NCBI GenBank assembly: GCA_001644455.1
Contig: LSTF01000001.1
Coordinates: forward strand, 13,109-77,108
Reading direction: 5' to 3'
DNA from: Betaproteobacteria bacterium SCGC AG-212-J23
GTDB lineage: Bacteria > Pseudomonadota > Gammaproteobacteria > Burkholderiales > SG8-39
DNA length: 64,000 nt
In this document: piece by piece, positions 2,124-19,285 of the stretch
Numbering within the stretch: the first letter of the stretch is position 1
How the letters are laid out: each line of letters begins with the position of its first letter
Notes under the pieces: model-generated
Told to the model about the DNA's origin: nothing
What the model saw: the letters and a program-made list of their open reading frames with translations, nothing else
The model's database searches: none
Position numbers and translations under genes: made by a program

Positions 2124-4859
2124 ATGGGGGTCTCGCTCATCCTCGGCGGCGCGGTCGGCGCCATGGCATTCGGCGCGGTGATGGTGTTCGTCTCGCGCCG
2201 CGCCGACCACGTCTCGCTCTGGCTCGGCTGCTTCCTCGTCTGCGTGGCGACGGAGATCCTGCTCGGCGGCGAAATGGGCCGCGTGGCGGGCATGCTCGGC
2301 CTGCCGTTTCTCGCCGCGTTCCTCGCCGAGGTGAGCCCGGGCAAGTGGCAGCGTCGCGCCGCGATCGCGGTGGCGCTGGTCGGGGTCGCGGCGGCGGCCT
2401 TTGGCGGGATCGGCGTGGTGCAGCTGCTCGCCTTCGGCCTCGTGGGCTGGGCGAGCGTGGTCTCGGTGCAGCTCGCGCGGGAGCGGCGCACCTGGTGGCC
2501 GGTCGTGATCACCGTGATGGCGTTGATGTATCCGTTGCTCACGCTCGGCTTCTTCGATCCGCCGGCGCTCGAGCCCGCGGGCTTTCTCTCCTACGTGGTC
2601 GCGCCGGGCGTGATCCTGACGCGGCGCGCGATCCGCGCCTTCGACGCCGAGGCGCGGCGCGCGCTCGACCAGGCGAAGTTCGCCACGGACGTGTTCGACT
2701 CGGTGCCGGTGGCGCTGTCGATGCGCGACCTCGACGGCCGCTACGTGTTCGTCAACCGCACCTGGGAGAAGTACTACGGCAACCTGCGCGACCGGGTCAT
2801 CGGCACCAGTCCGCGCGACCGCGCCACCCCGGAAGAGGCGAAGGCGCTGCTCGCGCTCGACAAGGCGGCGCTCGACGCCGGCCCGAACCAGCCGACGCCG
2901 CCCGCGGATTTCACGCTCGGCGACAAGCGCTACCTGCAGACGCGCACGGCGATGGTCGATTCGCAGGGCAAGCTGCTCGGCGTGCTCACTGCGAGCATCG
3001 ATACCAGCGAGCGCAAGGCGATGGAAGAGGCGCTCGCCATGGAGCAGCAGCGCCTCGCGCTGGTGGTGCACTCCTCCAAGCTCGGCATGCTCGACTGGGA
3101 CGCCGCGACGCGCAGCGCGTACTACTCGCCGCGCTTCAAGGAGATCCTCGGCTACGCGCCCGACGCCGACACCTCGGGCTGGCCGGACTACTTCGACCTG
3201 CTGCATCCCGAGGACGCGCCCAGCGTGAAGAAGCGCTTCCGCGACCACATCATCGGCAGCCGCGACGATTTCCACGAGGCGCTCGACTACCGGCTGCGCC
3301 GTGCCGACGGCAAGTACATCTGGGTGCAGGCGCAGGGCATCTCGGTGCGCGACGAGAAAGGCTACGCCCGGCGCTTCATCGCCACGCTCACCGACATCAC
3401 CCAGCGCCGCGCGCAGGAGGAGGCGATGCGCGAGAGCATGCACCTGCGCGAAGAAGTGGAGCGCATGTCGCGCCACGACCTGAAGACGCCGCTGAACAGC
3501 GTCATCGCCGTATCGCGCCTGCTGCGCCAGAGCGCGAACCTGTCGCGCGACGACGAGGAGCTGCTGTCGATCGTCGAGCGCGCCGGCTACCGCATCCTGT
3601 CGATGGTGAATCTCTCGCTCGATCTCTTCAAGATGGAGCAGGGCACCTACCAGTTCCGCGCGCAGGCGGTCGATCTCTCGGAAGTGGTGCGCAAGGTCGC
3701 CGCCGACCTCGAGAGCCAGGCGGCGTCGAAGGACGTGGTGATCAACCTCAAGCAGTCGGGCCACGCCACCGCGCGCGCCGAGGAAGTGCTGTCCTACTCG
3801 ATGCTCGCCAACCTGGTGAAGAACGCGATCGAAGCCGCGCCCGAGGGCGGCGTGGTCACGGTGACGGTGGAAGGCGCGGGCGACAACGTCGCGGTGCACA
3901 TCCACAACCCCGGCGAGATCTCGCCGCGGGTGCGGCCGCGCTTCTTCGAGAAGTACGTCACCACCGGCAAGGGCGGCGGCGTCGGCCTCGGCGCCTACTC
4001 GGCGCGCCTGATGGCGCGCGTGCAGGAAGGCGAGCTCACCATGCACAGCGAAGCCGGACCCGGCACCACGCTCTCGGTGCGCATGCGCGCCGCACATGCC
4101 CAGCAGCCGAGTGAAGAGCGCGCCTCGGCGCCGACCGCCTCGCCGGGCGAGCGCCTGCCGGTGCTGCCGGCGCTCAAGGTGCTGGTGGTCGACGACGACG
4201 AGTTCAACCGCCTGGTGTTCCGCCGCATGCTGCCCACCCCGCCGCTCGAGCTCACCATGGCGGTGAACGGCCGCGCCGCGCTCGACGCGGCGAAGGGCGA
4301 CTTTCCCGACGTGGTGCTGCTCGACCTCGAGATGCCGGTGATGGACGGCTACGAGGCCGCCGGCCGGCTGCGCAAGCTGCAGACCCAGCTGAAGAAGCCG
4401 CTGCGCATCATCGCCATCTCCTCGAACGACGATTCGCGCTCGATCGAGCGCGCGCTCAACTCCGGCTGCGACGAGTACCTGGTGAAGCCGGCGCCGCGCG
4501 AGGCGCTGTGGGCGGCGCTGGCGGGAAGCGAGACCACGCCGGCGAGGAAGAAGGAAGAAGATGCCCATGAAAAAGATCCCGTCGATCTCGACGCGGATCT
4601 GCGGGCGACGCTGCCCGACTTCCTGCGCTCGCGGCGCGAGGCGCTCGACGAGCTGCCGCAGGCGCTCGCCGCCGGCGACCGCGAGAAATTCCGCCGCCTG
4701 GCGCACAAGCTCGCCGGCAGCTTCGCGCTCTACGGATTCAAGTGGGCGGGCGCGCAGTGCCGCGCGCTGCAGGACGCGGCGGCGCAGGGCGAAGCCGCCG
4801 ATCTTTCGCGCCGCGTGAGCGCGCTGCGCACGCATCTCGACAAGGTGGAGATCCGCTGA
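2124..4859 (+). CDS. Membrane hybrid sensor histidine kinase (TM-PAS-PAS-HisKA-HATPase-REC-Hpt)
   Basis: Hydrophobic N-terminus, two PAS/PAC segments, RHDLKTPL H-box, NLVKNAIE, GVGLG, VLVVDDD receiver and LAHKLAGS Hpt. Confidence 0.92.
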   Translation: MGVSLILGGAVGAMAFGAVMVFVSRRADHVSLWLGCFLVCVATEILLGGEMGRVAGMLGLPFLAAFLAEVSPGKWQRRAAIAVALVGVAAAAFGGIGVVQLLAFGLVGWASVVSVQLARERRTWWPVVITVMALMYPLLTLGFFDPPALEPAGFLSYVVAPGVILTRRAIRAFDAEARRALDQAKFATDVFDSVPVALSMRDLDGRYVFVNRTWEKYYGNLRDRVIGTSPRDRATPEEAKALLALDKAALDAGPNQPTPPADFTLGDKRYLQTRTAMVDSQGKLLGVLTASIDTSERKAMEEALAMEQQRLALVVHSSKLGMLDWDAATRSAYYSPRFKEILGYAPDADTSGWPDYFDLLHPEDAPSVKKRFRDHIIGSRDDFHEALDYRLRRADGKYIWVQAQGISVRDEKGYARRFIATLTDITQRRAQEEAMRESMHLREEVERMSRHDLKTPLNSVIAVSRLLRQSANLSRDDEELLSIVERAGYRILSMVNLSLDLFKMEQGTYQFRAQAVDLSEVVRKVAADLESQAASKDVVINLKQSGHATARAEEVLSYSMLANLVKNAIEAAPEGGVVTVTVEGAGDNVAVHIHNPGEISPRVRPRFFEKYVTTGKGGGVGLGAYSARLMARVQEGELTMHSEAGPGTTLSVRMRAAHAQQPSEERASAPTASPGERLPVLPALKVLVVDDDEFNRLVFRRMLPTPPLELTMAVNGRAALDAAKGDFPDVVLLDLEMPVMDGYEAAGRLRKLQTQLKKPLRIIAISSNDDSRSIERALNSGCDEYLVKPAPREALWAALAGSETTPARKKEEDAHEKDPVDLDADLRATLPDFLRSRREALDELPQALAAGDREKFRRLAHKLAGSFALYGFKWAGAQCRALQDAAAQGEAADLSRRVSALRTHLDKVEIR

Positions 4860-7803: not shown

Positions 7804-10356
7804 GTGCAAATCGAGAAGGGAAAGCTGTTTTCGCGGCTGGCCGAAGGCCACGCGGCGCGCATCACCGTCGTCACGCCGAACAAGCGCCTCTCGCAGGCGC
7901 TGATGCTCGAGTTCGACTCGTTTCAAATAGAGAGAAAACTGTCCGTCTGGGAGGCGCCCGACATCCTGCCGTTCGGCGCCTTCGTGCAGCGCCTCTACGA
8001 GGACGGGCTCTATTCCGATCTCTCCGCCGAGCTGCCGATGCTCCTCACGCCGGCGCAGGAAGAGGAGATCTGGAAGCAGGTCGTCGCCGGCAGCGGCCTG
8101 CTGGCCGTGGACGGAACCGCGGCGAAGTGCCGCGACGCCTGGAACCTCGCCAACCTGTGGCGCGTTCGCCCGGGCGAGAGCAACGAGGACACCAGCGCTT
8201 TTTCCCAATGGTTGAATCACTACAAGAGAAAAATCGGCAGCGACGTCGATAGCGCGCAGCTTCCCGACCTGCTGCACAAGTTCCTGCCCGAGCTGAAGCG
8301 GCCGAAGACTGTCGTCGCCTACGCCTTCGACATCCTGCCGCCGCAGACGAAGGAATTCCTGGACGCGCTGGGAATCGAAGTTCTCTTTTCGAAGCCGACC
8401 CCTCGCGCCGGCGGCGCTTCGCGAGCGGCCTTCGACTCGCCGAAGAAGGAGCTCGAGGCCGCGGCGCAGTGGGCGAGGGCGCGGCTCGAGGCGGGCGCGA
8501 CGCGGATTGGCGTTGTTTTTCCTTCTTTGCAGGAAAGGAGAAAAGAAGTCGCGCGGGTTTTCTCGCGCGTCATGGGCGATGTGAAGCCGTTCAATATCTC
8601 GATCGGCATTCCCCTGGATCGGTACCCGGTCGTCGCGCTTGCCTTGCTGGTGCTTCGCTTTTCGGAAGAGCAACTCTCCTTCGACGAGGTGAGCAGGCTG
8701 GTGCGCTCGCCCTTCATCGGCGGCGCCGAGAGCGAGCTCGGCGCGCGCATGAAGCTCGACCTGCGCCTGCGCGACAAGCTCGGCGCGACGGTGGCGCTGC
8801 CGAAGCTGATCGCTTTCCTGGACAAGAGCCTGGTCCTGAGGCAGAAGCTCGAAAAAGCCTTTGCCTTGCGCGAGACCGGGCTCTTCGCGCAGAAGACGCC
8901 GGCCGAGTGGGCGCGGCATTTCTCGGCGGTTCTCGAAGCCGCCGGCTTCCCCGGCGAGCGCCCGCTCGATTCGGACGAATTCCAGGCGCGGGCCAAGTGG
9001 CACGAGGCGCTCGGCGAGCTCTCGAAGCTGGACCGAATTTCTTCGCCGTTGCCTTTCAATGAAGTCTTCTCGATCTTGAGAAAGATTTGTGCCGACACGC
9101 TTTTCCAGCCCGAGACCCCCGACACGCCGATCCAGGTGCTGGGCCTCCTCGAGTCGGTCGGCGCGGAGTTCGACCATCTCTGGGTGACCGGCCTCACCGA
9201 CGAGGCCTGGCCGCTGAAGAGCGCGCCGAATCCCTTCCTGCCGCTCGCGCCGCAGAGGAAGGCCGGCATCCCCGAGGCGAGCGCGGAGACTTCGCTCGCG
9301 CTCGACCGGCGCATCACCGACGGCTGGAAGCAGGCCGCGGGCGAAGTGGTGTTCTCGTTCTTCACCAAGGAGCAGGACCGCGACGTGCTGGCAAGCCCGC
9401 TGATCGCCGACGTCCCCGAGAAGAAGGTCGAGGTTCCCGCTTTCCCGAGACTGCGCGACTTGATCTTTGCTTCTCGAAAAGTTCAGATCATCGAAGATCG
9501 CGTCGCGCCCGCCGTTAGGGCAAAACAGATCCGCAGCGGTACCAAGGTCCTCTCCGACCAGGCGGCGTGCCCGTTCCGCGCCTTCGCGCGCCATCGCCTC
9601 TCCGCCGAGGAGATGGAGGAGCCCGCCGACGGCCTCGACGCCTCGGAGCGCGGCAAGCTGGTGCACGAGCTGATGAGGCACCTGTGGGAACAAATAAAAA
9701 ATTCAGAAGGGTTGAAAGGCGATGTTTCATCGGCCATCGAGCAAGCCGCGGCAGCCGCGGTGAAGGAACTCAAGCTCGAAGGCCGCATCGCCGAGCTCGA
9801 GCGCGCGCGCCTGGCGCGCCTCGCGCGCGAATGGCTGGAGGTCGAGAAGGCGCGTCCCGCCTTCAGTATTTTTTCCCTGGAAGAAAAACGAACCCTCGAG
9901 TTCGCCGGCCTGGAGTTCGGCGCGCGCATCGACCGCATGGACAAGCTCGAGAGCGGCGGCCACGCGATCATCGACTACAAGACCGGCGGCAGCATCACGC
10001 CGCGGCGCTGGGACCCGCCGCGCCCCGACGAGCCGCAGCTCGCGCTCTACGCGGTGGCGGCGAAGGAGGAGATCTCCGCCGTCGCCTTCGCCAAGGTGCG
10101 TCCCGGCGAGATGCGCTTCATGGGCTACTCGCGCGACGACAAGGCGATCCCCAAGGTGCAGAAGGCGAAGGCGTGGCAGCCGCTGCTGCGCGCCTGGAAG
10201 GACGAGGCCGAGTCGCTCGGCACTTCGTTCGCGCGCGGCGACGCGGGCGTCGACCCCAAGAAGGACCTCATGACCTGCCGCTACTGCGGCCTGGAGACGC
10301 TCTGCCGCGTCTACGAGAAGATCAACGTGCTGGCGGAAGAGGAATTCGAAGAGTGA
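7804..10356 (+). CDS. addB: AddB-like PD-(D/E)XK nuclease subunit with Fe-S cysteines
   Basis: Degenerate helicase-like N-terminus (VVTPNKRL), ACPFRAF, RIDRMD, IIDYKTG, QLALY, CRYCGLETLC; coupled to a UvrD-type gene. Confidence 0.85.
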   Translation: MQIEKGKLFSRLAEGHAARITVVTPNKRLSQALMLEFDSFQIERKLSVWEAPDILPFGAFVQRLYEDGLYSDLSAELPMLLTPAQEEEIWKQVVAGSGLLAVDGTAAKCRDAWNLANLWRVRPGESNEDTSAFSQWLNHYKRKIGSDVDSAQLPDLLHKFLPELKRPKTVVAYAFDILPPQTKEFLDALGIEVLFSKPTPRAGGASRAAFDSPKKELEAAAQWARARLEAGATRIGVVFPSLQERRKEVARVFSRVMGDVKPFNISIGIPLDRYPVVALALLVLRFSEEQLSFDEVSRLVRSPFIGGAESELGARMKLDLRLRDKLGATVALPKLIAFLDKSLVLRQKLEKAFALRETGLFAQKTPAEWARHFSAVLEAAGFPGERPLDSDEFQARAKWHEALGELSKLDRISSPLPFNEVFSILRKICADTLFQPETPDTPIQVLGLLESVGAEFDHLWVTGLTDEAWPLKSAPNPFLPLAPQRKAGIPEASAETSLALDRRITDGWKQAAGEVVFSFFTKEQDRDVLASPLIADVPEKKVEVPAFPRLRDLIFASRKVQIIEDRVAPAVRAKQIRSGTKVLSDQAACPFRAFARHRLSAEEMEEPADGLDASERGKLVHELMRHLWEQIKNSEGLKGDVSSAIEQAAAAAVKELKLEGRIAELERARLARLAREWLEVEKARPAFSIFSLEEKRTLEFAGLEFGARIDRMDKLESGGHAIIDYKTGGSITPRRWDPPRPDEPQLALYAVAAKEEISAVAFAKVRPGEMRFMGYSRDDKAIPKVQKAKAWQPLLRAWKDEAESLGTSFARGDAGVDPKKDLMTCRYCGLETLCRVYEKINVLAEEEFEE

Positions 10357-13300
10357 GCGAGATGAAGGACGCCGCCCAGCGGGAACGCGCGCTCGACGTG
10401 CGCCACTCGTTCATCGTCCAGGCGCCCGCCGGCTCCGGGAAGACGGATTTGCTGGTGCGTCGCTTTCTGAAGCTGCTGGCCACGGCAAAAAAGCCGGAAG
10501 AAATCCTCGCCATCACGTTTACGAAGAAAGCCGCGGCGGAGATGCGCAAGCGCATCCTCAAAGAGCTTCCGAACTCCGCCGAGGTCGCCCACCGCCTTCG
10601 CATCCAGACCATCGACGCTTTCTGTGCAGCCTTGACTCGTCAAGTCCCGGTGCTCGCCCGCTTCGGCGCGCAGCCCGAGATCATCGAGGACGCGCGGCCA
10701 CTCTACAAGGAAGCCGCGGGGCGCGTCTTCGAGGAATTCAATCCCGCGACCGAGCGGCTGCTCGCGCACCTCGACAACAACATCCCGCTCGCCACCGACC
10801 AGCTCGCGAAGATGCTCGAGAGCCGCGACCGCTGGCTGCGCAAGACCGGCGCGGTGCCGACGCGGCAGGAGCTGGAAGCGACCCTGGTCTCCGAAAGGAA
10901 TCGCCTTCTCCACAAAGCCAAGGCCCTTTACCCGAAAGCCTCGGAAGCTCTCGCGCGCGGCTTCCTGACGCAGAAGGGCGAGTGGACCAAGCGCTCCCCG
11001 CCGCCGCCCGAGTTCGTCCAGATCGCCGGCCTGCGCGAAGCGCTCTGGGCGCTCTACAACATGCCGCCGGAGAAGTACGAGGACCGGCAATGGGAGGCGC
11101 TGGAAGCGATCCTCGCGCTGCTCAAGCCCGCCGTCGCGCAGCTGAAGGTGCTGTTCGGCGAGCGCGGCCAGGCCGACTTCACCGAGTTCGCGCACGGCGC
11201 GCTCGCCGCGCTCGGCTCGGTCGACGACCCGAGCGATCTCCTGCTCTCGCTCGACCAGAAGATCTCGCACATCCTGGTCGATGAGTTCCAGGACACTTCG
11301 CTTTCCCAATATGAATTACTTGTGAAGTTGACCTCGGGGTGGTCCGCCGACGACGGCCGCACGCTCTTCCTCGTCGGCGACCCGATGCAGTCGATCTACC
11401 GCTTCCGCGAAGCCGAGGTGTCTTTGTTTTTGCGCGCCAAGCACTCCGGCGTCGGTTCCGTTTCCCTCGAGCCGATCGAGCTCAGCACCAACCGCCGCTC
11501 GCAGGAAGGCCTCGTCGAGTGGTTCAACGCCGCCTTCCCGCGGGTTTTACCTTCACAAGAGGATCAAACCTCCGGGGCTGTCCCGTACCTCCCCGCCACG
11601 CCCTTCGAGCCGAAGCTCGATGGCACCGCCGTGAGCTGGCACTGCGGCTATGACCGCGAAGCCGAAGCAGCCCAAGTTGTTTCAATCGTTAAATCTTCCC
11701 CCGGGAAAAAAGCAATTCTGGTCCGCAACCGCGCCCACCTCGACGAGATCGTCCCCGCGCTCAAGGAGGCGGGCGTGCGCTTCAAGGCGCTCGACATCGA
11801 GCAGCTCGGCGAGAAGCAGGTGGTGCAGGACCTCTATGCCCTGACGCGCGCGCTCCTGCACCTCGGCGACCGCATCGCCTGGCTCGCCCTCCTCAGGGCG
11901 CCTTGGTGCGGCCTGACGCTCGCCGACCTGCTGGCCTTGTCGGTTGGCCCCCCTGACAAGGGGGGAAGCGAGTTTACGAGCGGGGGGTTTTTGGTTTTCG
12001 ATCTTTTGAACGATTCCGTCCATTTGTCCCCCGACGGCTACGCCCGCGTCTCCCGCCTTCGCGATGTGCTCAAGCCGCTGATCGACAACCGCCTGCGCGG
12101 CTCCTTGCGCGAGCGCGTCGAGGGCGCGTGGCTCGCGCTCGGCGGCCCCGCGTGCGTCGAGAGCGCCACCGACCTCGAGGACGCCGAGATCTTCCTCGAC
12201 GAGCTCGAGCGCCTGGAAGAGGCGGGCGAGGTCGACCTCGCCGCCCTCGAAGACCGGATCAAGGGCCGCCTCTACGCGCTCCCCGATGTCGAGGCCCCCG
12301 ACGACGCGGTCGAGATCATGACCATCCACCGCGCCAAGGGTCTCGAGTTCGACCACGTGATCGTCCCCGGCCTCGACCGCCTCCCTCGTTCGGGCCCCAA
12401 ACCACTTCTTGTTTGGAAGTCTTTGGTTTCTTCGGTTTTGCGCCCTGACTCGGGGGTTCGCTCGCCTCGGCCCCCTGACAAGGGGGCAGCGAACGAAGTG
12501 AGCGGGGGTTCTCTTCTCCTCGCGCCCATCGACGAGACCGGCGCCGGCGAAGACCCGACATATAAGTATGTGCGCGAGCTCGACAAGGACGCCGACGACA
12601 TCGAGTCCGGCCGCCTCTTCTACGTCGCCGCCACCCGCGCCAAGCAGCGCCTGCACCTCCTCGCCTGCGCGAAGGCAACCGAAGACCTCGCCGCCCGCGA
12701 TCCCTCGAAGCGCTCCCTCCTCAGCAAGATCTGGTGGCAAGCACGCGCGCACTTCGGCCCCGCGCCCGCCGATGCGATCGCCGAACCCGAGCGCATGCCG
12801 ATTCGAGATGTGTTGCAGCGGCTTCCTGCCGGCTTCGCTGTGCCAGGTGCGCCGACGTCGGTGAAGTGGAGCGCGCCGGAGGATGGACGTCAGGAAGAAG
12901 AGATCGAATTCTCATGGGCGGGCGAGACAGCGCGGCACGTCGGAACGGTGGTGCATCGGTGGCTGCAGCGAATTGCAGACGATGAGTTGCGCGAGTGGGA
13001 CGTGAAGCGCGTCGATGCCCTTAGGAAGAAATTCCGTACGGAGCTCGAACGGCGTGGTGTGCCACTACGCGATATCAAAGCCTCGCTCGAGGCGGTTGGA
13101 GGTGGGCTGAAGAATGCGATTTCAGATGAGCGCGGCCGTTGGATTCTTGGTCCGCATCTAGAGGCGCGCAGCGAGCATCGCCTGCGCGTGTCGGGCAAGA
13201 ACGGCGCGCGGAACTATGTCATTGATCGTCTATTCCGCGACACCTCTGGCGAACGGTGGATCGTGGACTTCAAGATCAGCAGTCACGAGGGCGGGGGGGT

Positions 13301-13430
13301 CGAGGCCTTTCTCGATGAGCAGCAAAAACGGTATGAGCCTCAACTCAACGCCTATGCGGCCTTGTTCGACCGGGCTCGCTTAGGGCTCTACTTCCCGCTT
13401 CTTCGAGGTTGGCGGCGCTGGGGCGCGTAG
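10353..13430 (+). CDS. addA: AddA-like UvrD helicase / C-terminal nuclease
   Basis: APAGSGKT Walker A, AITFTKKAA, LVDEFQD, VGDPMQSIYRFR, MTIHRAKGLEF, YVAATRAK, nuclease IDRL..IVDFK..QLNAY. GTG start overlaps the addB stop. Confidence 0.9.
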   Translation: MSEMKDAAQRERALDVRHSFIVQAPAGSGKTDLLVRRFLKLLATAKKPEEILAITFTKKAAAEMRKRILKELPNSAEVAHRLRIQTIDAFCAALTRQVPVLARFGAQPEIIEDARPLYKEAAGRVFEEFNPATERLLAHLDNNIPLATDQLAKMLESRDRWLRKTGAVPTRQELEATLVSERNRLLHKAKALYPKASEALARGFLTQKGEWTKRSPPPPEFVQIAGLREALWALYNMPPEKYEDRQWEALEAILALLKPAVAQLKVLFGERGQADFTEFAHGALAALGSVDDPSDLLLSLDQKISHILVDEFQDTSLSQYELLVKLTSGWSADDGRTLFLVGDPMQSIYRFREAEVSLFLRAKHSGVGSVSLEPIELSTNRRSQEGLVEWFNAAFPRVLPSQEDQTSGAVPYLPATPFEPKLDGTAVSWHCGYDREAEAAQVVSIVKSSPGKKAILVRNRAHLDEIVPALKEAGVRFKALDIEQLGEKQVVQDLYALTRALLHLGDRIAWLALLRAPWCGLTLADLLALSVGPPDKGGSEFTSGGFLVFDLLNDSVHLSPDGYARVSRLRDVLKPLIDNRLRGSLRERVEGAWLALGGPACVESATDLEDAEIFLDELERLEEAGEVDLAALEDRIKGRLYALPDVEAPDDAVEIMTIHRAKGLEFDHVIVPGLDRLPRSGPKPLLVWKSLVSSVLRPDSGVRSPRPPDKGAANEVSGGSLLLAPIDETGAGEDPTYKYVRELDKDADDIESGRLFYVAATRAKQRLHLLACAKATEDLAARDPSKRSLLSKIWWQARAHFGPAPADAIAEPERMPIRDVLQRLPAGFAVPGAPTSVKWSAPEDGRQEEEIEFSWAGETARHVGTVVHRWLQRIADDELREWDVKRVDALRKKFRTELERRGVPLRDIKASLEAVGGGLKNAISDERGRWILGPHLEARSEHRLRVSGKNGARNYVIDRLFRDTSGERWIVDFKISSHEGGGVEAFLDEQQKRYEPQLNAYAALFDRARLGLYFPLLRGWRRWGA
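11946..11990. repeat. Palindromic repeat copy 1, in frame within addA
   Basis: GGCCCCCCTGACAAGGGGGGAAGCGAGTTTACGAGCGGGGGGTTT; hairpin CCCCCCT-GACA-AGGGGGG; reads GPPDKGGSEFTSGGF. Confidence 0.8.
12443..12510. repeat. Palindromic repeat copy 2, in frame within addA
   Basis: GGCCCCCTGACAAGGGGGCAGCGAACGAAGTGAGCGGGGGTT with outer arm GTTCGCT(12456-62)/AGCGAAC(12488-94); reads PPDKGAANEVSGGS. Confidence 0.8.
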
Positions 13431-13855
13431 TCCCAACGATTGGTCGTGGTGCGTGCGGAAACAATCGTGAGCACAGTGCTGCACGCTTTGGCCAGGTTTC
13501 GATCGATCTCGTGTTCCCAAATGCGGATGACACCCCATCCATTCGATCGTAGCCACCGAGATACCTTCCGGTCTCTTTTCTTATTGGCTAGAAGTTTTGT
13601 CTTCCAAAACGCCCTACGCAACTTCGGCATGACGTAATGCTGCGGGCACCCGTGCCAAAAGCATCCGTCCACGAAGATCGCGACTCGGGCACCCGGAATG
13701 ACAAGGTCCGGCCTGCCCAGAATGGAATTCTTGATCCGATAGCGCACTCCACACGCCCACAAGGCTTTTCGGAACACAACCTCTAGTCTGGTGTCACGCC
13801 CGCGATTCCGCGACATGCAGTAGGCACGTTGCGCGGGTGAAAGAACATCAGCCAC
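13388..13855 (-). CDS. vsr: Very short patch repair endonuclease
   Basis: MADVLSPAQRAYCMSRNRGRDT, GRPDLV, IFVDGCFWHGCP, RIWEHE; lies beside a C5 methyltransferase. Confidence 0.95.
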   Translation of the reverse strand: MADVLSPAQRAYCMSRNRGRDTRLEVVFRKALWACGVRYRIKNSILGRPDLVIPGARVAIFVDGCFWHGCPQHYVMPKLRRAFWKTKLLANKKRDRKVSRWLRSNGWGVIRIWEHEIDRNLAKACSTVLTIVSARTTTNRWDYAPQRRQPRRSGK

Positions 13856-13870
13856 CGCACATCCTTGCGC

Positions 13871-14977
13871 TTATTCGGTCTCGACAACTACCTCGAGAGG
13901 CGTTTCGGCTGCAAAGGTTAAAGTCCGCGGGTCTACGGATATGGCATCCGCCTCAACACCTTTTGGTAGATTCGTGAGGACCTTAAGCACGCCTTCGGCA
14001 AAAGCCTTCATGGGACCAGAGACGCGGAGTTTCGCTTGGCGCTCCACGATTCCGTAGACGCGAAAGATGCGATAGTCCGTCGAGTCGCGCATCTCCAGCA
14101 GTTCAGCGATGGAGATGTGAAGAGGGTTTTCGAAAGGTCCTCTGGTCGTCTTCACGTCAACTAACTGGTTGGCAGCCTTCTCGCGGATTTCAAAGTCAAA
14201 GGGCATGATCGCGTTGTCCCGCGACGCCCATGTGAACGCCTCGATCCTGCCGGCCCCTAATTCGCGGGTGAGGTGGTCATTCACGAATTCCTCTCCAAGC
14301 GCTCCAATCTCCTCCGCCTTCTGTCGCGCCTGTTGTAGCTCTTCCTTGGAAATGCGCCTCAACCCAGACCGTCGCTTGAGCTCGCGCATTCCTTTCGCGC
14401 CACCGACTGCAGCGTCCTCGAGGGACGACTCCAACGAAGCTCCGGCGATTGGGAACGAGGCGAGAAGTCCCTGGTGATTGAGGAGGATGTCCAAGTCAAC
14501 CGGACTAATTTCGGACATCCGCCGCGACCCGAGGTGGCGATCGAACGCGGCGTGGAGCTTTGCGTCCAGCGCTTGGGACACGAGCGCTATGCGCATTGAA
14601 TCTGGAAAGTGCTGTCCCGTGAATTCAAGAAGAGCAATGTCGCCCTCTCTAAGGGTGTTGAACCTATCGGGCGATTCAGGGGGGTTAAAAATGAACTCGC
14701 CGTTCAAGCGCCAGTTCTTGTATTCACCTAGCTTGATGATCTTGCGCTGCAGGTTTAGACGTGGCGCGGGTCCCGGACCGTAAATGTCCAAGTCGACTGC
14801 AAACTTGCCTGCTCGGCTTTTCGCTTCGTCTGGCATGGCAGGAAACAGCAGTTCGACGAGCACATCAGCGTTCAGATTGATCGCCTTTTGGTTCCCTGCG
14901 TTCACATGTCGGAACTGCCATTCAAACAACGTTAGGTCTGAGCGGGTCAGTCGCTTGAGCGCCAGCTTCTTGTGCAT
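13871..14977 (-). CDS. Putative type II restriction endonuclease: B3/EcoRII-N-like DNA-binding domain plus DUF3883 PD-(D/E)XK nuclease
   Basis: N-terminal KRLTRSD..NQKAINL..KNWRL..LREGDIALL; C-terminal IGALGEEFV..PFDFEI..VDVKTT..ISIAE; coupled to the MTase stop (TAATG). Confidence 0.7.
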   Translation of the reverse strand: MHKKLALKRLTRSDLTLFEWQFRHVNAGNQKAINLNADVLVELLFPAMPDEAKSRAGKFAVDLDIYGPGPAPRLNLQRKIIKLGEYKNWRLNGEFIFNPPESPDRFNTLREGDIALLEFTGQHFPDSMRIALVSQALDAKLHAAFDRHLGSRRMSEISPVDLDILLNHQGLLASFPIAGASLESSLEDAAVGGAKGMRELKRRSGLRRISKEELQQARQKAEEIGALGEEFVNDHLTRELGAGRIEAFTWASRDNAIMPFDFEIREKAANQLVDVKTTRGPFENPLHISIAELLEMRDSTDYRIFRVYGIVERQAKLRVSGPMKAFAEGVLKVLTNLPKGVEADAISVDPRTLTFAAETPLEVVVETE

Positions 14978-16443
14978 TAGTGGAGGCCCAGACCGGTCTT
15001 GAAAGTCATTGCTATCCGATAGGCGAGCAGCGGGGGGACTGCATTGCCGATCTGGCGGAACGCTGGATTCATGGTCCCGGCAAAAGCGAAGCCATCAGGG
15101 AAGGACTGCAACCTAGCCGCCTCACGAACGGAGATGGTGCGGGCTTGGCTGCTGTCGTAGTGGATATGGGAATAACTGTCCTTGCCCAAGTGAGCCATGA
15201 GTGTTCGAGCAGGCTTGTTCCGCTCCATCTTTCGCCACTTGTTCGGAAACTTCCCCGGATCATAGGGCGGGACGATCGAACGCTTGACCCGCTCATACTC
15301 GGCGCTTCCCTCGCGTATACGCTTTCCGTTTCTTCGCATCGCCTTCAACTTTGCTTCAAAAAGGTCCAATGCGTGGCGGTGAGCAGCCGGATACTCGTCA
15401 CCCGCATTCATCTTGCTGAAGATTTGGTAGTCGCGTGGGAGCGATCTGATCACGTGGTCTAACACACCGCCATTCGCTTCAAATCCCGGCCACTCTCGCA
15501 TCTGGCGAGCGAAATCGGACAGTGGCTTCTTCTTCGGGTATGGAACTAGCTGAGTAAAGCGGCGAGCGCCCCTCTTGAGACCGCCATTCAAGTGCTCTGT
15601 AATGGAGGGCAAGTCAGAGATTGCGTCATACGCGGTTACCGCCGGAAGCAACGAGTCCTTCTCGGGCTCAGGAGGCGGAGTGTAGAACTGGTCCTGGTCG
15701 AACAAATCGTTGCGGAGCGTCTGAAGAGCTACTTGCCGCGAGCTCACATAGCCCCGCGGTAGTTCGATGTAGTTGAGTGGATTGGGAAATGCTGGTTCGG
15801 CTTTGAGTGATTCGTGATAGGCGATGAGGAACATGCGCTCCCGCATTTCTGGAACGCCATAGAAGACTGAATTTAGTAGCGTGTACCGACACTCATATCC
15901 AAGATCCGCAAGCGTCTCGCATATCTCCTCAGCGATGTTGTGCCCTCCGTAGTTGAGTACATCAGGCACGTTTTCCATGAGAAGTGCCAAAGGCTGGAGT
16001 TCACGCACATAGTGCAGATAGCGTAGGTAGAGGTTGCTTCGCGGGTCCAACTTGAACGCCCGCGGATGCTCCAACACTTCACGAAGCTTTGCGCGGCCAA
16101 CCCTCGCAAACGCTTGGCAAGGAGGGCCGCCAACAATTACGTCAACGACGCGTTCAGGTGGTTCCTGATGGCCGTGTTCCCTAAGGAAGTCCGCCGGCTC
16201 AGTCGATGTTATGTCTCGAGCTCTGGCGTGGATGTCCCTGATGTGCTTTGGCGCTTCCCGACTGAAATTCAGAGCGTGAGACTGCGCGGCATGTGGATCA
16301 AACTCCACTGCGCCGACTAGCTCAAAGCCGGCCCGATGAAATCCAAGCGAAATGCCGCCGCAACCGGCGAAAAGGTCTACGAGTCTCGGTCTGCCGCCAG
16401 CTTCTAGTCGAGCGATCTTTTGTCTGATCGTCTTGTTCAGCAC
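14977..16443 (-). CDS. dcm: DNA (cytosine-5)-methyltransferase
   Basis: Motif I DLFAGCGG, IV GGPPCQ, VI MENVP, VIII GVPEMRERMF, IX RTISVREAARLQSFPD, X QIGNAVPP. Confidence 0.95.
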   Translation of the reverse strand: MLNKTIRQKIARLEAGGRPRLVDLFAGCGGISLGFHRAGFELVGAVEFDPHAAQSHALNFSREAPKHIRDIHARARDITSTEPADFLREHGHQEPPERVVDVIVGGPPCQAFARVGRAKLREVLEHPRAFKLDPRSNLYLRYLHYVRELQPLALLMENVPDVLNYGGHNIAEEICETLADLGYECRYTLLNSVFYGVPEMRERMFLIAYHESLKAEPAFPNPLNYIELPRGYVSSRQVALQTLRNDLFDQDQFYTPPPEPEKDSLLPAVTAYDAISDLPSITEHLNGGLKRGARRFTQLVPYPKKKPLSDFARQMREWPGFEANGGVLDHVIRSLPRDYQIFSKMNAGDEYPAAHRHALDLFEAKLKAMRRNGKRIREGSAEYERVKRSIVPPYDPGKFPNKWRKMERNKPARTLMAHLGKDSYSHIHYDSSQARTISVREAARLQSFPDGFAFAGTMNPAFRQIGNAVPPLLAYRIAMTFKTGLGLH

Positions 16444-16594
16444 TATCTAAATCCCTTGGCCCTCTTCTTGTTGACCCTACTACCGTGCCCAGACGAGATG
16501 CATGAATAAATATACACCAGGACGCTGTCGCCGGAGCGGTGCTTTGGCAGCCGAAACCTACTGACTTAAGCTATCCGCCAACAAAGGGGGGCGT

Positions 16595-17833
16595 ATGGCT
16601 CGGCTCGTGGACTTTGGGAGCATTCTGGACAAGAAGAAGGAGGGGAATAGCACCTGTTATCTGGTTCGATCAAGCCTCAAGCGCTACCTCGCGGCTTTGC
16701 CGGAGGAGTTCGGTGACTACCAGATTCAGCGGGAGGTGGTTACCAATGTATATCTTGATGAGCTGGTCAAGACAGTCCTGAAGTGCGGACACATTCCGCC
16801 GTTGGTATTGATCGGGGAGGGAGCTCTAGCGAACAACGGCGAATTAAGACTTGCGCGGTTCCGAATCCTTGACGGACTGCAGAGGACCGTTCGGCTGAAA
16901 GCGATACACGACGCCGCGGACCTACTAAGCGAGCACGATAACGATGTCAATCATGCGCGAAAGATTGCACGGGAGAGGCTCGCTAAGACAGGCTCAGAAC
17001 GTCTCGTTGAAATCGGCGCCTCTCAGGGTCTCTTTACTGCACTTGCGGAATTTGTGAAGAAACACAGCGAGGCGGACCTTAACGCTGTGTTTGAAAGCAG
17101 TCAGTGGTTTGAGATCTGGACCGATTTGGGCACGGAAGAGCAGATCCGAAAAATGCTGGTGCTCAACGCGGGCCATAAGCCAGTAAGGACACGTCATCAA
17201 TTAGAGCTTCTCTTCTTGAACGTCCTACCAAAGTTGAAAGGGGCGTCTAAACGAGAGATTTCGGTGGTGAGGGAAAAAGAGCGCAGTGCTATCTTTTTTG
17301 CGAAATCCCGGAAGAAAGGCCAATTTCATTTCGCTGAGTTGATAGCAGCGCTAATCGCGATGTCGGAAGGCGAGCCGGTCACCACCAATCCTGCGCTCAT
17401 CACTGATATTCAGAACGGCGAACTCAAGGACGGCCTTGCTTCGTGCCTCAGGGAAGAGGTCCTCGCATCGTTTGTCGACACACTGGTGGCGCTTGAGGAT
17501 GCCGCGCTAAAGGACTCAGAGAAATACGGAGTGCAGTGGGTGGGGCGCGAAGTCGTGTTGGTTGGCCTATTTGCTGCCGTTGGACACTACGCTAATCGCA
17601 AGGGTGTCAGTTTTGAGAAAGGGATGGAGCGGTTGCAGAAGCGGCTCGCAAGGACGGGATGGCTAAAGCTCTCGGAGTTTGAGAAAGAGCGCAACTCTCA
17701 GGACTTGGCAAAGGTCAACATTGGCACCGTGAACAAGCGCGCTGTATTTCGGGCGTTTAGCAATGCGTTAGATGCCGAAGCAGAAGCTCCGGAGGCAGTC
17801 AAATGGGGCAGACTGTTTAGGGAGCCTGCCTAA
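16595..17833 (+). CDS. ParB/Srx-fold DUF262/DndB-like protein
   Basis: YQIQREVV, HIPPLVL, RILDGLQRT and MLVLNAGHKPV match the QR / IPP / DGxQR / lN.g pattern; purine-rich RBS upstream. Confidence 0.7.
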   Translation: MARLVDFGSILDKKKEGNSTCYLVRSSLKRYLAALPEEFGDYQIQREVVTNVYLDELVKTVLKCGHIPPLVLIGEGALANNGELRLARFRILDGLQRTVRLKAIHDAADLLSEHDNDVNHARKIARERLAKTGSERLVEIGASQGLFTALAEFVKKHSEADLNAVFESSQWFEIWTDLGTEEQIRKMLVLNAGHKPVRTRHQLELLFLNVLPKLKGASKREISVVREKERSAIFFAKSRKKGQFHFAELIAALIAMSEGEPVTTNPALITDIQNGELKDGLASCLREEVLASFVDTLVALEDAALKDSEKYGVQWVGREVVLVGLFAAVGHYANRKGVSFEKGMERLQKRLARTGWLKLSEFEKERNSQDLAKVNIGTVNKRAVFRAFSNALDAEAEAPEAVKWGRLFREPA

Positions 17834-19210
17834 ATGGCCAACCCCAGTGTCAATTCACTCCTCAAGCGGCGAATAAAGGAGTTGTCGTCCCTCGCGGTAA
17901 CACCGCCGAAGGGCCTGCCCACATATTGGGGCCGCAAAGGTATGTCAGTTGAAGCGAAAGCAGCTGTCGGCTCTCTGCAAGCCGCGCTGCAGGACCTGTC
18001 AGTTGGATCTTCCATGGAACTCGTGGAATTGGTAGTCAAGCTGCTGGATGACTGCGAGCGGGTTGGGCGGCCAATTCCACATGGCTATCACGCTGCGGCG
18101 TTGCTCGCGGCGCGACTCGTCAAGAAAGTCGGACAGTCTGTCAAAGACGGGTCGCTTCCAGGGACCACATCCGTTGCGAAGGGCAAGGTCATTGCCTTCA
18201 AGCAAGCAATCTTGAACGAGTCATTTGTGTTTGTTGATCCCTCCAGCGCGGCGAGGAATCTCTCCTACTTGGACCTGCAGTATTCGGTAGACAAACGGAA
18301 ATCGTTGGACGTAGCGATCGACTCAACTCCCGAAGTATTACTGTTGATTGCGCTAGCGGGAGTGAAGCCGCTCGAGCGTATTGAAGCACCTTTTCTGGCG
18401 TTGGTGGGTGATGCAATTACTGGCGATGCCGCTCATGTAGCTGCGCTGGCGCGCTTCTACCGACTGGCTCGCGGCCAGATATTTCACGCAACCAACGAAT
18501 ACAAGCGCAAGAGTGATCCAGTCGCGGCGACAAACCTCGATATTGCGGTTGACTACTCGCAATTCGAAGATGTGGCCTATGTGATGAGTGAGGCAAACGA
18601 GAAGCAAGACGTTCTTGATAGGTTCCTGCGTCTCTACCAAGTGCTCGAAAACTTCATGATACGAAGGGTAGTCGCGAAGTTAGCTAACGCCACACCCGGG
18701 CGGGTGTTCTCCCTCCGGGATTTTCGGGGGCTCTATAAGAGCTTTATCGACGGCGAAATCAAAACCCTATCGAACCTATTTGGGGAGGCACTGAAGATTG
18801 CCGTTCCAGCGAGTGCGCCGGGCGGTCCGCATGCCGACCTTGAAGCTTACATTCGATACCTCTGGCACTCGGGTCTGCCGCATGCATCCATGCATGCGGA
18901 CCTTGAGGTCCTTCTGGACCGTATCGATCCTGGTGGAGGATACAAGCCCATAAATAGTTTCCACTCGCAGCTAGATGGGCGGAAGTTCGCGAGACTGATT
19001 TATGCGGTCAGGAACTCCATCGTTCATAACAAGGAGACGGAGTTTCATCTGACACACAAGACGTTGACGCCCGCGCTTGTCATATTGATGAACGAGGTTC
19101 TCTTTCCCGCACTCGAAGAGATGATCTTTTCATGTGTGTGTGCGCCGACACCGGGGAACTTCGTTCGCTATGACCACCGTCAAATGGCTCTCTACGAAAG
19201 GATCGCCTAG
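17834..19210 (+). CDS. HEPN-motif protein (putative RNase effector)
   Basis: DRFLRLYQVLENF helix and C-terminal IYAVRNSIVHNKE (RxxxxH); ATG immediately follows the stop of the upstream gene. Confidence 0.7.
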   Translation: MANPSVNSLLKRRIKELSSLAVTPPKGLPTYWGRKGMSVEAKAAVGSLQAALQDLSVGSSMELVELVVKLLDDCERVGRPIPHGYHAAALLAARLVKKVGQSVKDGSLPGTTSVAKGKVIAFKQAILNESFVFVDPSSAARNLSYLDLQYSVDKRKSLDVAIDSTPEVLLLIALAGVKPLERIEAPFLALVGDAITGDAAHVAALARFYRLARGQIFHATNEYKRKSDPVAATNLDIAVDYSQFEDVAYVMSEANEKQDVLDRFLRLYQVLENFMIRRVVAKLANATPGRVFSLRDFRGLYKSFIDGEIKTLSNLFGEALKIAVPASAPGGPHADLEAYIRYLWHSGLPHASMHADLEVLLDRIDPGGGYKPINSFHSQLDGRKFARLIYAVRNSIVHNKETEFHLTHKTLTPALVILMNEVLFPALEEMIFSCVCAPTPGNFVRYDHRQMALYERIA

Positions 19211-19285
19211 GGCAGGTCGCCGTTCTCGAGCGTGGTTGTGGGCGCAATTGGATGCGAGGCGTCTGTTGCGCAACCGCAGCTCTAA

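Follow-up and report, generated by a model that had tools for sequence, protein, structure and literature searches.

A Dazbog-like gene pair with a probable HEPN domain, encoded head-to-head with a cytosine-C5 methylase operon on a low-GC island

A low-GC island within a 64,000-nucleotide stretch of the genome of Betaproteobacteria bacterium SCGC AG-212-J23 (hereafter the window, whose positions supply all our coordinates) carries two plus-strand genes, A (16595..17833) and B (17834..19210), which lie head-to-head with a restriction-modification (R-M) operon. We identify the pair, by means of the PADLOC models for both proteins, as a member of Dazbog (dzbA-dzbB), a two-gene anti-phage system named and experimentally validated by Millman et al. 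2022. At a probability of about three in four, the pair belongs to Dazbog, as one of a widespread and diverged clade of proteins of ~410 and 450 amino acids, and acts by the mechanism proposed below. The original prediction, made from the sequence of the island, had described an unnamed candidate defence module. It was a correct observation of a known and named system, and the pair is not new, given that PADLOC calls A as DzbA (model PDLC03835, E 1.3e-32) and B as DzbB (model PDLC03836, E 4.9e-15); that a match of this kind would remove the novelty had been foreseen in the prediction itself. Standard defence finders should label the locus Dazbog.

We call the pair Dazbog because both PADLOC models match, because the order A then B is strict, and because DzbA was the sole PADLOC family found in all 40 sampled relatives of A (best E 6.7e-40). 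For A itself, DzbA was the only defence family matched at E<=1, and the match covered positions 14-121 and 117-373 of the 393 in the profile; its relatives number at least 559 at ~40% identity. For B, the DzbB model matched residues 250-421 through profile positions 193-324 of 341, with a weak match to Orf5 as the other PADLOC hit at E<=1. A profile search with B gave 373 cluster representatives, mostly of 440-465 amino acids, and 64 of 78 relatives of B matched DzbB and no other PADLOC family. Several points weigh against the assignment. The DzbB match spans the HEPN part of B only and leaves its first 250 residues outside the model, and even among the relatives of B the best DzbB E-value was 6.5e-17. 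Moreover, the model also matched (E 9e-13) a 436-residue protein in G214, a genome without DzbA. With DzbB coverage partial, scores moderate and G214 also matched, the clade must be regarded as distant from the PADLOC seed sequences; and since the DzbB model matches in a DzbA-less genome, a DzbB match alone is not diagnostic and the call rests on the pair. In G214 (locus L008, G214:C1; open reading frames (ORFs) 802-2112 and 2214-3497) the next gene after that for the 436-residue protein is an ORF with weak matches of the PD-T4-6/mad6 type, which makes this a different HEPN-type pairing.

The two genes abut, as the original prediction had stated: the stop codon of A (TAA, 17831-17833) is directly followed by the ATG of B at 17834, and a purine-rich stretch of the ribosome-binding-site type precedes both starts. 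When metagenome contigs were scanned with an alignment of A, 80 loci were returned, as compared with only 3 from a single-protein scan of genome contigs. In 69 of the 80 metagenome loci A was directly followed by a co-oriented gene of the B family, and in the other 11 the contig had at most 424 nucleotides past A. A few of the metagenome B copies were truncated by contig ends or seemingly interrupted. The same order, A then B, was also found on a plasmid of Priestia megaterium (L009, NZ_CP018877) and in four loci on viral contigs (L090-L093, of which L092 is the same contig as L081). The pairing of A and B is thus far beyond chance.

The surroundings of individual loci were varied. At L065 (1039-11905) a P2-like prophage harbours the pair, between the gene for the replication gene A protein and the portal, terminase and capsid genes, a position of the variable-slot type where P2-like phages carry defence cargo. 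On the Priestia plasmid (L009, 1253-7740) it follows a C5 methylase, an MspI-family restriction enzyme, a fusion of a UvrD-type helicase with a PD-(D/E)XK nuclease, and an HNH endonuclease, so that this stretch of the plasmid is dense in defence genes. A Schlafen-group-3-type helicase and a Cap4-type nuclease were seen near the pair at L033 (2126-8356), and two SocA/Panacea antitoxin-domain genes at L055 (9984-11149).

Gene A encodes a dzbA-like protein of 412 amino acids with a DUF262/ParB-like N-terminal part and a large conserved C-terminal part. All 40 relatives shared Q45 and R46, I67 and P68, D93-T98 (DGLQRT) and L190-K195 (LNAGHK), and the motifs quoted in the original prediction (QR, IPP, DGLQR and LN.G, together with FLxLYQVLE and RNSIVH) were all present in the translations and conserved among relatives. 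The DGLQRT motif (16871..16888, plus strand) would be a nucleotide-binding signature of the ParB/DUF262 type; a related DGQQR motif of GmrSD-like proteins is said to serve nucleotide hydrolysis (bioRxiv 2024.01.29.577857). In A itself the Pfam family GmrSD_N (DUF262, PF03235) was matched only weakly, at E 0.062 and 13.8 bits against a family cut-off of 33.2; among the relatives, it was the only Pfam family to recur, in 23 of 40 at E<=1 with a best E of 2.8e-5. Judged by these sequence features, the reading of A as DUF262/ParB-like, which was also that of the original prediction, is probably right. No solved structure for A emerged when PDB chains were searched by sequence and by profile, NCBIfam and PHROGs were uninformative for both proteins, and fused, longer forms of A were not found, a result that counts as weak evidence by the search tool's own note.

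Gene B encodes a dzbB-like protein of 458 amino acids. In an AlphaFold2 (AF2) model it is divided into a four-helix bundle (residues 1-109), an alpha/beta middle part (~117-235) and a HEPN-like C-terminal domain (residues 236-458; 18539..19207, plus strand). The database gene call (P0001, 398 amino acids) begins B at Met61, 60 residues later, beyond the region 17834-18013. A relative of 450 amino acids aligned over 100% of the 458-residue form, and we therefore consider the longer start, which abuts the stop of A, the better call. The full-length model of B had a predicted local distance difference test score (pLDDT) of 86.1 and a predicted TM-score (pTM) of 0.75, and the C-terminal domain modelled alone from 38 sequences was all-helical with a pLDDT of 90.0 and a pTM of 0.87.

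That the C-terminal domain of B is a HEPN domain, as the original prediction had proposed, is likely, though not proven, and its role as an RNase is predicted. We assign it so because the list of structural matches is consistent and covers the whole domain and because the motif R393-x4-H398 (RNSIVH; 19010..19027, plus strand), the predicted RNase active site, is invariant and has conserved companions in N399, E403 and H405. R393 and H398 were found in 140 of 140 relatives of B, N399 in 138, and E403 and H405 in 139 each; the stretch LYQVLENF includes a further invariant residue, E272. In a structural search with VIA-align the domain matched best to 5yep_B (Z 7.2, root-mean-square deviation 2.7, 111 residues aligned), followed by the C-terminal domain of AbiA (Z 6.5), 1jog (6.5), the HEPN toxins 8xdj and 7ae2 (6.4), MtlR/YggD and AbiV (5.5), and lower down by an Archaeoglobus HEPN protein, Csm6, Csx1, Las1, the sacsin HEPN domain, LsoA and RnlA. 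Several entries in this list name HEPN in their titles, and we take 5yep, 1jog, 1ylm and 1wwp to be of HEPN type as well. The AbiA C-terminal domain, MtlR, Csm6 and Csx1 stand in the HEPN table of PMC3710099. On the other side of the balance, every Z score was below 8, a range flagged by the tool as possibly a generic helical arrangement, and Foldseek gave no match in the PDB at E<=0.001 for either the full B model or the domain model. No Pfam HEPN family matched B at E<=1; among its 78 relatives the lone match to such a family was pEK499_p136 (E 0.005), in one protein. At E<=10, PF18737 (HEPN_MAE_28990) found no match in the source genome. PF18871 (HEPN_Toprim_N) had none there either at the same threshold, sequence and profile searches of PDB chains with B gave no match, and the ESM Atlas placed B with unnamed clusters only, in two of which 14-17% of the members carry PF17419 (MauJ).

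A description of DzbB as a HEPN protein was not found in the literature searched, outside of which lay subscription journals and supplements, and in a 2024 survey of 18 HEPN-containing defence systems PD-T4-2 is included and Dazbog is absent. Nor did any of the literature searched set out how Dazbog works at the level of mechanism. The system from B. mycoides, when placed in B. subtilis, behaves as abortive infection (Stokar-Avihail et al., bioRxiv 2022.08.27.505566). According to the same preprint, expression of the phage SPR C5 methylase makes it toxic and phages that escape it have lost CCGG methylation; its authors proposed that methylated DNA is sensed by the DUF262 domain, and the two Bacillus genes defend alone in the foreign host with no linked R-M system. 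Loss of the DUF262 gene abolishes defence, as stated in a review. In the Millman preprint, deletion of dzbB is listed alongside three antitoxin deletions as not transformable, "possibly due to toxicity".

In the mechanism that we propose for the pair, DzbA, as a nucleotide-binding protein of the ParB/DUF262 type, would read the modification state of DNA and sense foreign cytosine methylation. It would then release the activity of DzbB, whose HEPN domain would cut RNA, and growth of the infected cell would stop. The two proteins would be translated together and probably associate in a single complex, each holding the other in check; such mutual restraint, rather than a one-way switch, is suggested by the fact that a dzbB deletion is hard to obtain. 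In the likeliest division of labour, the restriction enzyme would cut unmethylated phage DNA, Dazbog would catch phages escaping through cytosine methylation of their own, and the host's own methylation pattern would have to be tolerated. Two considerations count against this scheme. Since the dzbB deletion was not transformable, DzbA alone is perhaps harmful, which fits poorly with B as the sole effector; in its simple form, the original prediction of a sensor that gates a HEPN toxin suffers from the same poor fit. In addition, 5-methylcytosine (m5C) as a trigger beside a C5 methylase of the host itself needs explanation.

Because the pair in the window faces a C5 methylase and an MspI-family R-M system lies 4 kb from the pair on the Priestia plasmid, we surveyed the neighbourhoods of the other loci. 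With an iterated profile, a C5 methylase or Vsr was found in 23 of 83 loci, many of which have little flanking sequence. We therefore turned to a well-flanked set in which the pair has 4 kb or more of sequence to either side, 27 loci in all and 26 after removal of L073, a 97.6% copy of L072, and ran Pfam on all 189 flanking ORFs of at least 150 amino acids within 6 kb of the pair. The C5 methylase family PF00145 was present within 6 kb in 9 of these 26 loci, Vsr added one further locus, and a Z1/DUF4420/AIPR cassette, mostly directly upstream of A, was present in 6. Taken together, a C5 methylase, Vsr or such a cassette lay within 6 kb of the pair in 12 of the 26, and an N6 methylase, belonging to a type I system, in one. 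To this extent the tie to R-M in the original prediction is supported as a link to m5C. By position, the cassette, whose DUF4420 member is of the PD-(D/E)XK type, was directly upstream of the pair at L027, L032, L034, L050 and L076, where the A match lies at ~7000, and was also present at L002; at L034 it includes in addition a HATPase_c_3 protein, and a C5 methylase or Vsr is often close to such cassettes. The cassette presumably resembles the MORC/MutL-like ATPase R-M cassettes of Iyer, Abhiman and Aravind 2008.

One may ask whether the pair, although Dazbog, merely lies beside dcm, the nuclease gene and vsr because defence genes ordinarily cluster on mobile islands. We regard this as possible, if on the doubtful side. 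It is favoured by the 14 of 26 well-flanked loci in which neither a C5 methylase nor Vsr nor a Z1/AIPR cassette was seen within 6 kb, which also speaks against the methylase link as such, and by the variety of what else occurs nearby, namely type I R-M, Cap4 nuclease, Schlafen-type helicase, SocA/Panacea, integrases, a P2-like prophage and a Tn7-like TniQ; in addition, Bacillus Dazbog works as two genes alone. Simple clustering, however, does not readily account for the kind of methylase found, as the DNA methylases nearby are nearly all of the C5 type (9 loci against 1 with N6), nor for the several operon-like arrangements, such as Vsr-M-A-B at L020 and A-B-M at L082, L084 and L086 (M, methylase). 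Further arrangements were M-HATPase-x-Vsr-A-B, cassette-M-M-x-A-B and a convergent M. It also fits poorly with the diversity of the linked methylases, whose median pairwise identity is ~29%, and with their scatter over the A family: on a quick IQ-TREE tree of 70 A proteins, the methylase-link label needed at least 8 changes and was not clustered (64 of 500 shuffles were as low). Finally, across the phylum ~177 match rows for PF00145 were spread over 151 genomes, from which we roughly estimate the chance of finding it in a given 12-kb stretch at well under 1%, with the caveats that some of the loci are kin and that the background was drawn from phylum genomes and not matched to defence islands.

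The link of the Dazbog family to m5C modules thus looks real, and its functional role is hypothetical. In the role we envisage, Dazbog pairs would be integrated with C5-methylation modules in such a way that DzbA compares the m5C in DNA with the "self" pattern of the linked methylase, and a foreign pattern switches on the HEPN RNase of DzbB. We offer this integration tentatively and hold it to be rather improbable as it stands.

In a different arrangement of roles, the pair would be a reversed toxin-antitoxin system in which DzbA is the harmful component, through nucleotide hydrolysis or through DNA binding or nicking, and DzbB checks or modulates it. The listing of the dzbB deletion with antitoxin deletions that could not be transformed agrees with such a reversal, as do the counting of ParB-like domains among the DNase domains in PMC3710099 and the far stronger conservation of A than of B, with a mean column identity of 0.56 in A against 0.26-0.28 in the first 235 residues of B. 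The pattern of conservation within B, on the other hand, with the R-x4-H motif, E272, E403 and H405 (near-)invariant in 140 relatives, argues for an enzyme over a passive antidote, and in the HEPN-MNT pairs at the head of the structural matches the HEPN protein is the toxin. We consider the reversal unlikely.

The original prediction had gone further and made the pair a guard of the R-M system, one that senses its inhibition by a phage and fires a HEPN RNase as a backup; such a guard would resemble PrrC with EcoprrI. The head-to-head position with the R-M operon, the recurrence of R-M or m5C modules near other loci and the described precedent of PrrC as a guard (bioRxiv 2022.08.27.505566) are in keeping with that role. 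Published work does not support it, however, since Dazbog defended B. subtilis without a linked R-M system and responded there to a phage methylase rather than to an anti-restriction protein; besides, such a neighbour is missing from more than half of the well-flanked loci, and the ABC ATPase of PrrC is absent. A guard function is therefore very improbable in our judgement. Least credible of all is that A and B act on unmethylated invaders while the linked C5 methylase protects host DNA, for, although the genes of the A-B-M and Vsr-M-A-B arrangements overlap or nearly abut and L082 and L084 have no recognisable restriction enzyme nearby, the window already has a separate nuclease gene between dcm and vsr, the published Dazbog was tolerated without a methylase and methylation sensitised phage rather than protecting it, and 14 of the 26 loci are without a methylase module.

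Returning to the reading of the pair as Dazbog, we compared it with the described system and with others that share its parts. Like the published Dazbog, it consists of two genes in an operon that begins with the probable DUF262-type gene, with matches to both PADLOC models, and is set among defence genes on a mobile island; it differs in that only the C-terminal part of DzbB was matched, that scores are moderate clade-wide and that the pair is head-to-head with a C5 methylase operon of the host. PD-T4-2 (Vassallo et al. 2022) is likewise a DUF262 system without DUF1524, comprising several genes and a HEPN domain, but its PADLOC models matched neither A nor B at E<=1. With GmrSD, BrxU and SspE the pair shares a probable ParB/DUF262-type N-terminal domain with a DGxQR motif, from a family known for reading modified DNA, whereas Pfam found no DUF1524/HNH in A, in B or on the island and the partner is a separate HEPN-like protein. 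An association of a HEPN protein, a ParB-like protein and a DNA methylase, as here, is described in PMC3710099, but its HEPN families, PF18737 and PF18871, are those for which the source genome gave no match. PrrC-EcoprrI, RloC, the AbiA C-terminal domain, AbiV and the HEPN-MNT toxins have in common with the pair the R-x4-H motif of a HEPN domain, which is likely in B, and R-M linkage, and the fold of the B domain is like that of the HEPN toxins, AbiA and AbiV; A and B, however, come without an ABC ATPase, reverse transcriptase or MNT partner, and the published trigger of Dazbog is a methylase, unlike the anti-restriction peptide of PrrC. Menshen differs by its NsnB ATPase and third effector gene, as the pair consists of two plus-strand genes only and no ATPase family was matched. 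The Pfam and PADLOC scans therefore agree with the original prediction that the pair is not GmrSD, Menshen, PrrC or MNT-HEPN.

The pair and the R-M operon together occupy an island of ~5.9 kb (13388..19285), which holds five genes according to the ORF list, three on the minus and two on the plus strand, A and B being the only plus-strand genes before the island ends. The foreign composition noted earlier was evident from a guanine-plus-cytosine (GC) content of 0.54-0.58 over 13-19 kb as against 0.64-0.74 elsewhere in the window. The island is bordered by a UvrD/AddB-like gene on one side and by a minus-strand gene of the high-GC flank on the other. At its left edge, the 3' end of vsr on the minus strand shares 13388-13430 with the plus-strand UvrD/AddB-like ORF (9567-13430), that is, the last 43 bases of the latter, so that the edge falls within the UvrD/AddB-like gene or exactly at its terminus. 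No direct repeats were found around the island. In the two related genomes that have both flanks (G001 and G007), each flank lies on a contig of its own. A search of 40 related genomes, of which 23 are at least 90% complete, turned up no gene B, and among 401 genomes of the phylum the PADLOC DzbB model had matches in 2, the source genome counted. From its absence in these relatives and its rarity in the phylum we conclude that the island is probably acquired and rare within this lineage. Neither the ORF list nor Pfam revealed an HNH/DUF1524, ABC ATPase or nucleotidyltransferase gene on it.

Between A and dcm, whose start lies at 16443 on the minus strand, ORF coordinates leave a divergent intergenic region of 151 bp (16444..16594), with the purine-rich stretch before the ATG at 16595. 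The original prediction had called it a divergent promoter region: the spacer is there, the promoter was deduced from the geometry, and a promoter scan found no sigma-70-like site in it.

The operon on the other side of this region has the layout of a type II m5C R-M system with Vsr, in that C5 methylase, candidate nuclease and vsr lie in one operon on the minus strand, in agreement with the order dcm, nuclease and vsr first noted. The dcm-type C5 cytosine DNA methyltransferase (14977..16443) matched PF00145 over the full profile (E 9.2e-59) and PADLOC MTase_II (E 4.7e-76), and vsr (13388..13855), for a very-short-patch T:G mismatch endonuclease, matched PF03852 (E 1.7e-26) and TIGR00632 (E 1.1e-38). 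The gene between them (13871..14977), whose start overlaps the stop of dcm by one base, encodes a candidate restriction endonuclease of 368 amino acids with a C-terminal nuclease domain at residues ~200-330 that is recognised by its likeness to NOV_C/DUF3883; the N-terminal 200 residues gave no domain assignment. Neither Pfam nor searches of PDB chains, by sequence and by profile, gave a match for it; PADLOC gave the C-terminus of TmtA (E 5.8e-10) and PDC-S36 (E 3e-7), and PF13020 (NOV_C) is carried by the clusters closest to it in the ESM Atlas (score 0.97), some of the NOV_C/DUF3883 clusters also having ScoMcrA_N or DUF3427 domains. As DUF3883 has been placed in the PD-(D/E)XK nuclease superfamily (PMC3424549), "restriction enzyme" is a fair label for this putative nuclease.

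In summary, the interest of the locus is confined to the HEPN assignment of DzbB and to the recurrent tie with C5-methylation modules. The HEPN-like domain with its strictly conserved R-x4-H gives a concrete catalytic hypothesis for DzbB, and the tie raises the question of how the host's own m5C is tolerated by Dazbog while phage m5C provokes a reaction. If the proposed integration with C5-methylation modules were true, the foreign pattern could come from a multispecific methylase of a phage, and together with a restriction enzyme both the unmethylated and the over-methylated escape routes would be closed. The pair would then be an exchangeable output module of Z1/DUF4420/AIPR/HATPase_c_3 systems linked to m5C.

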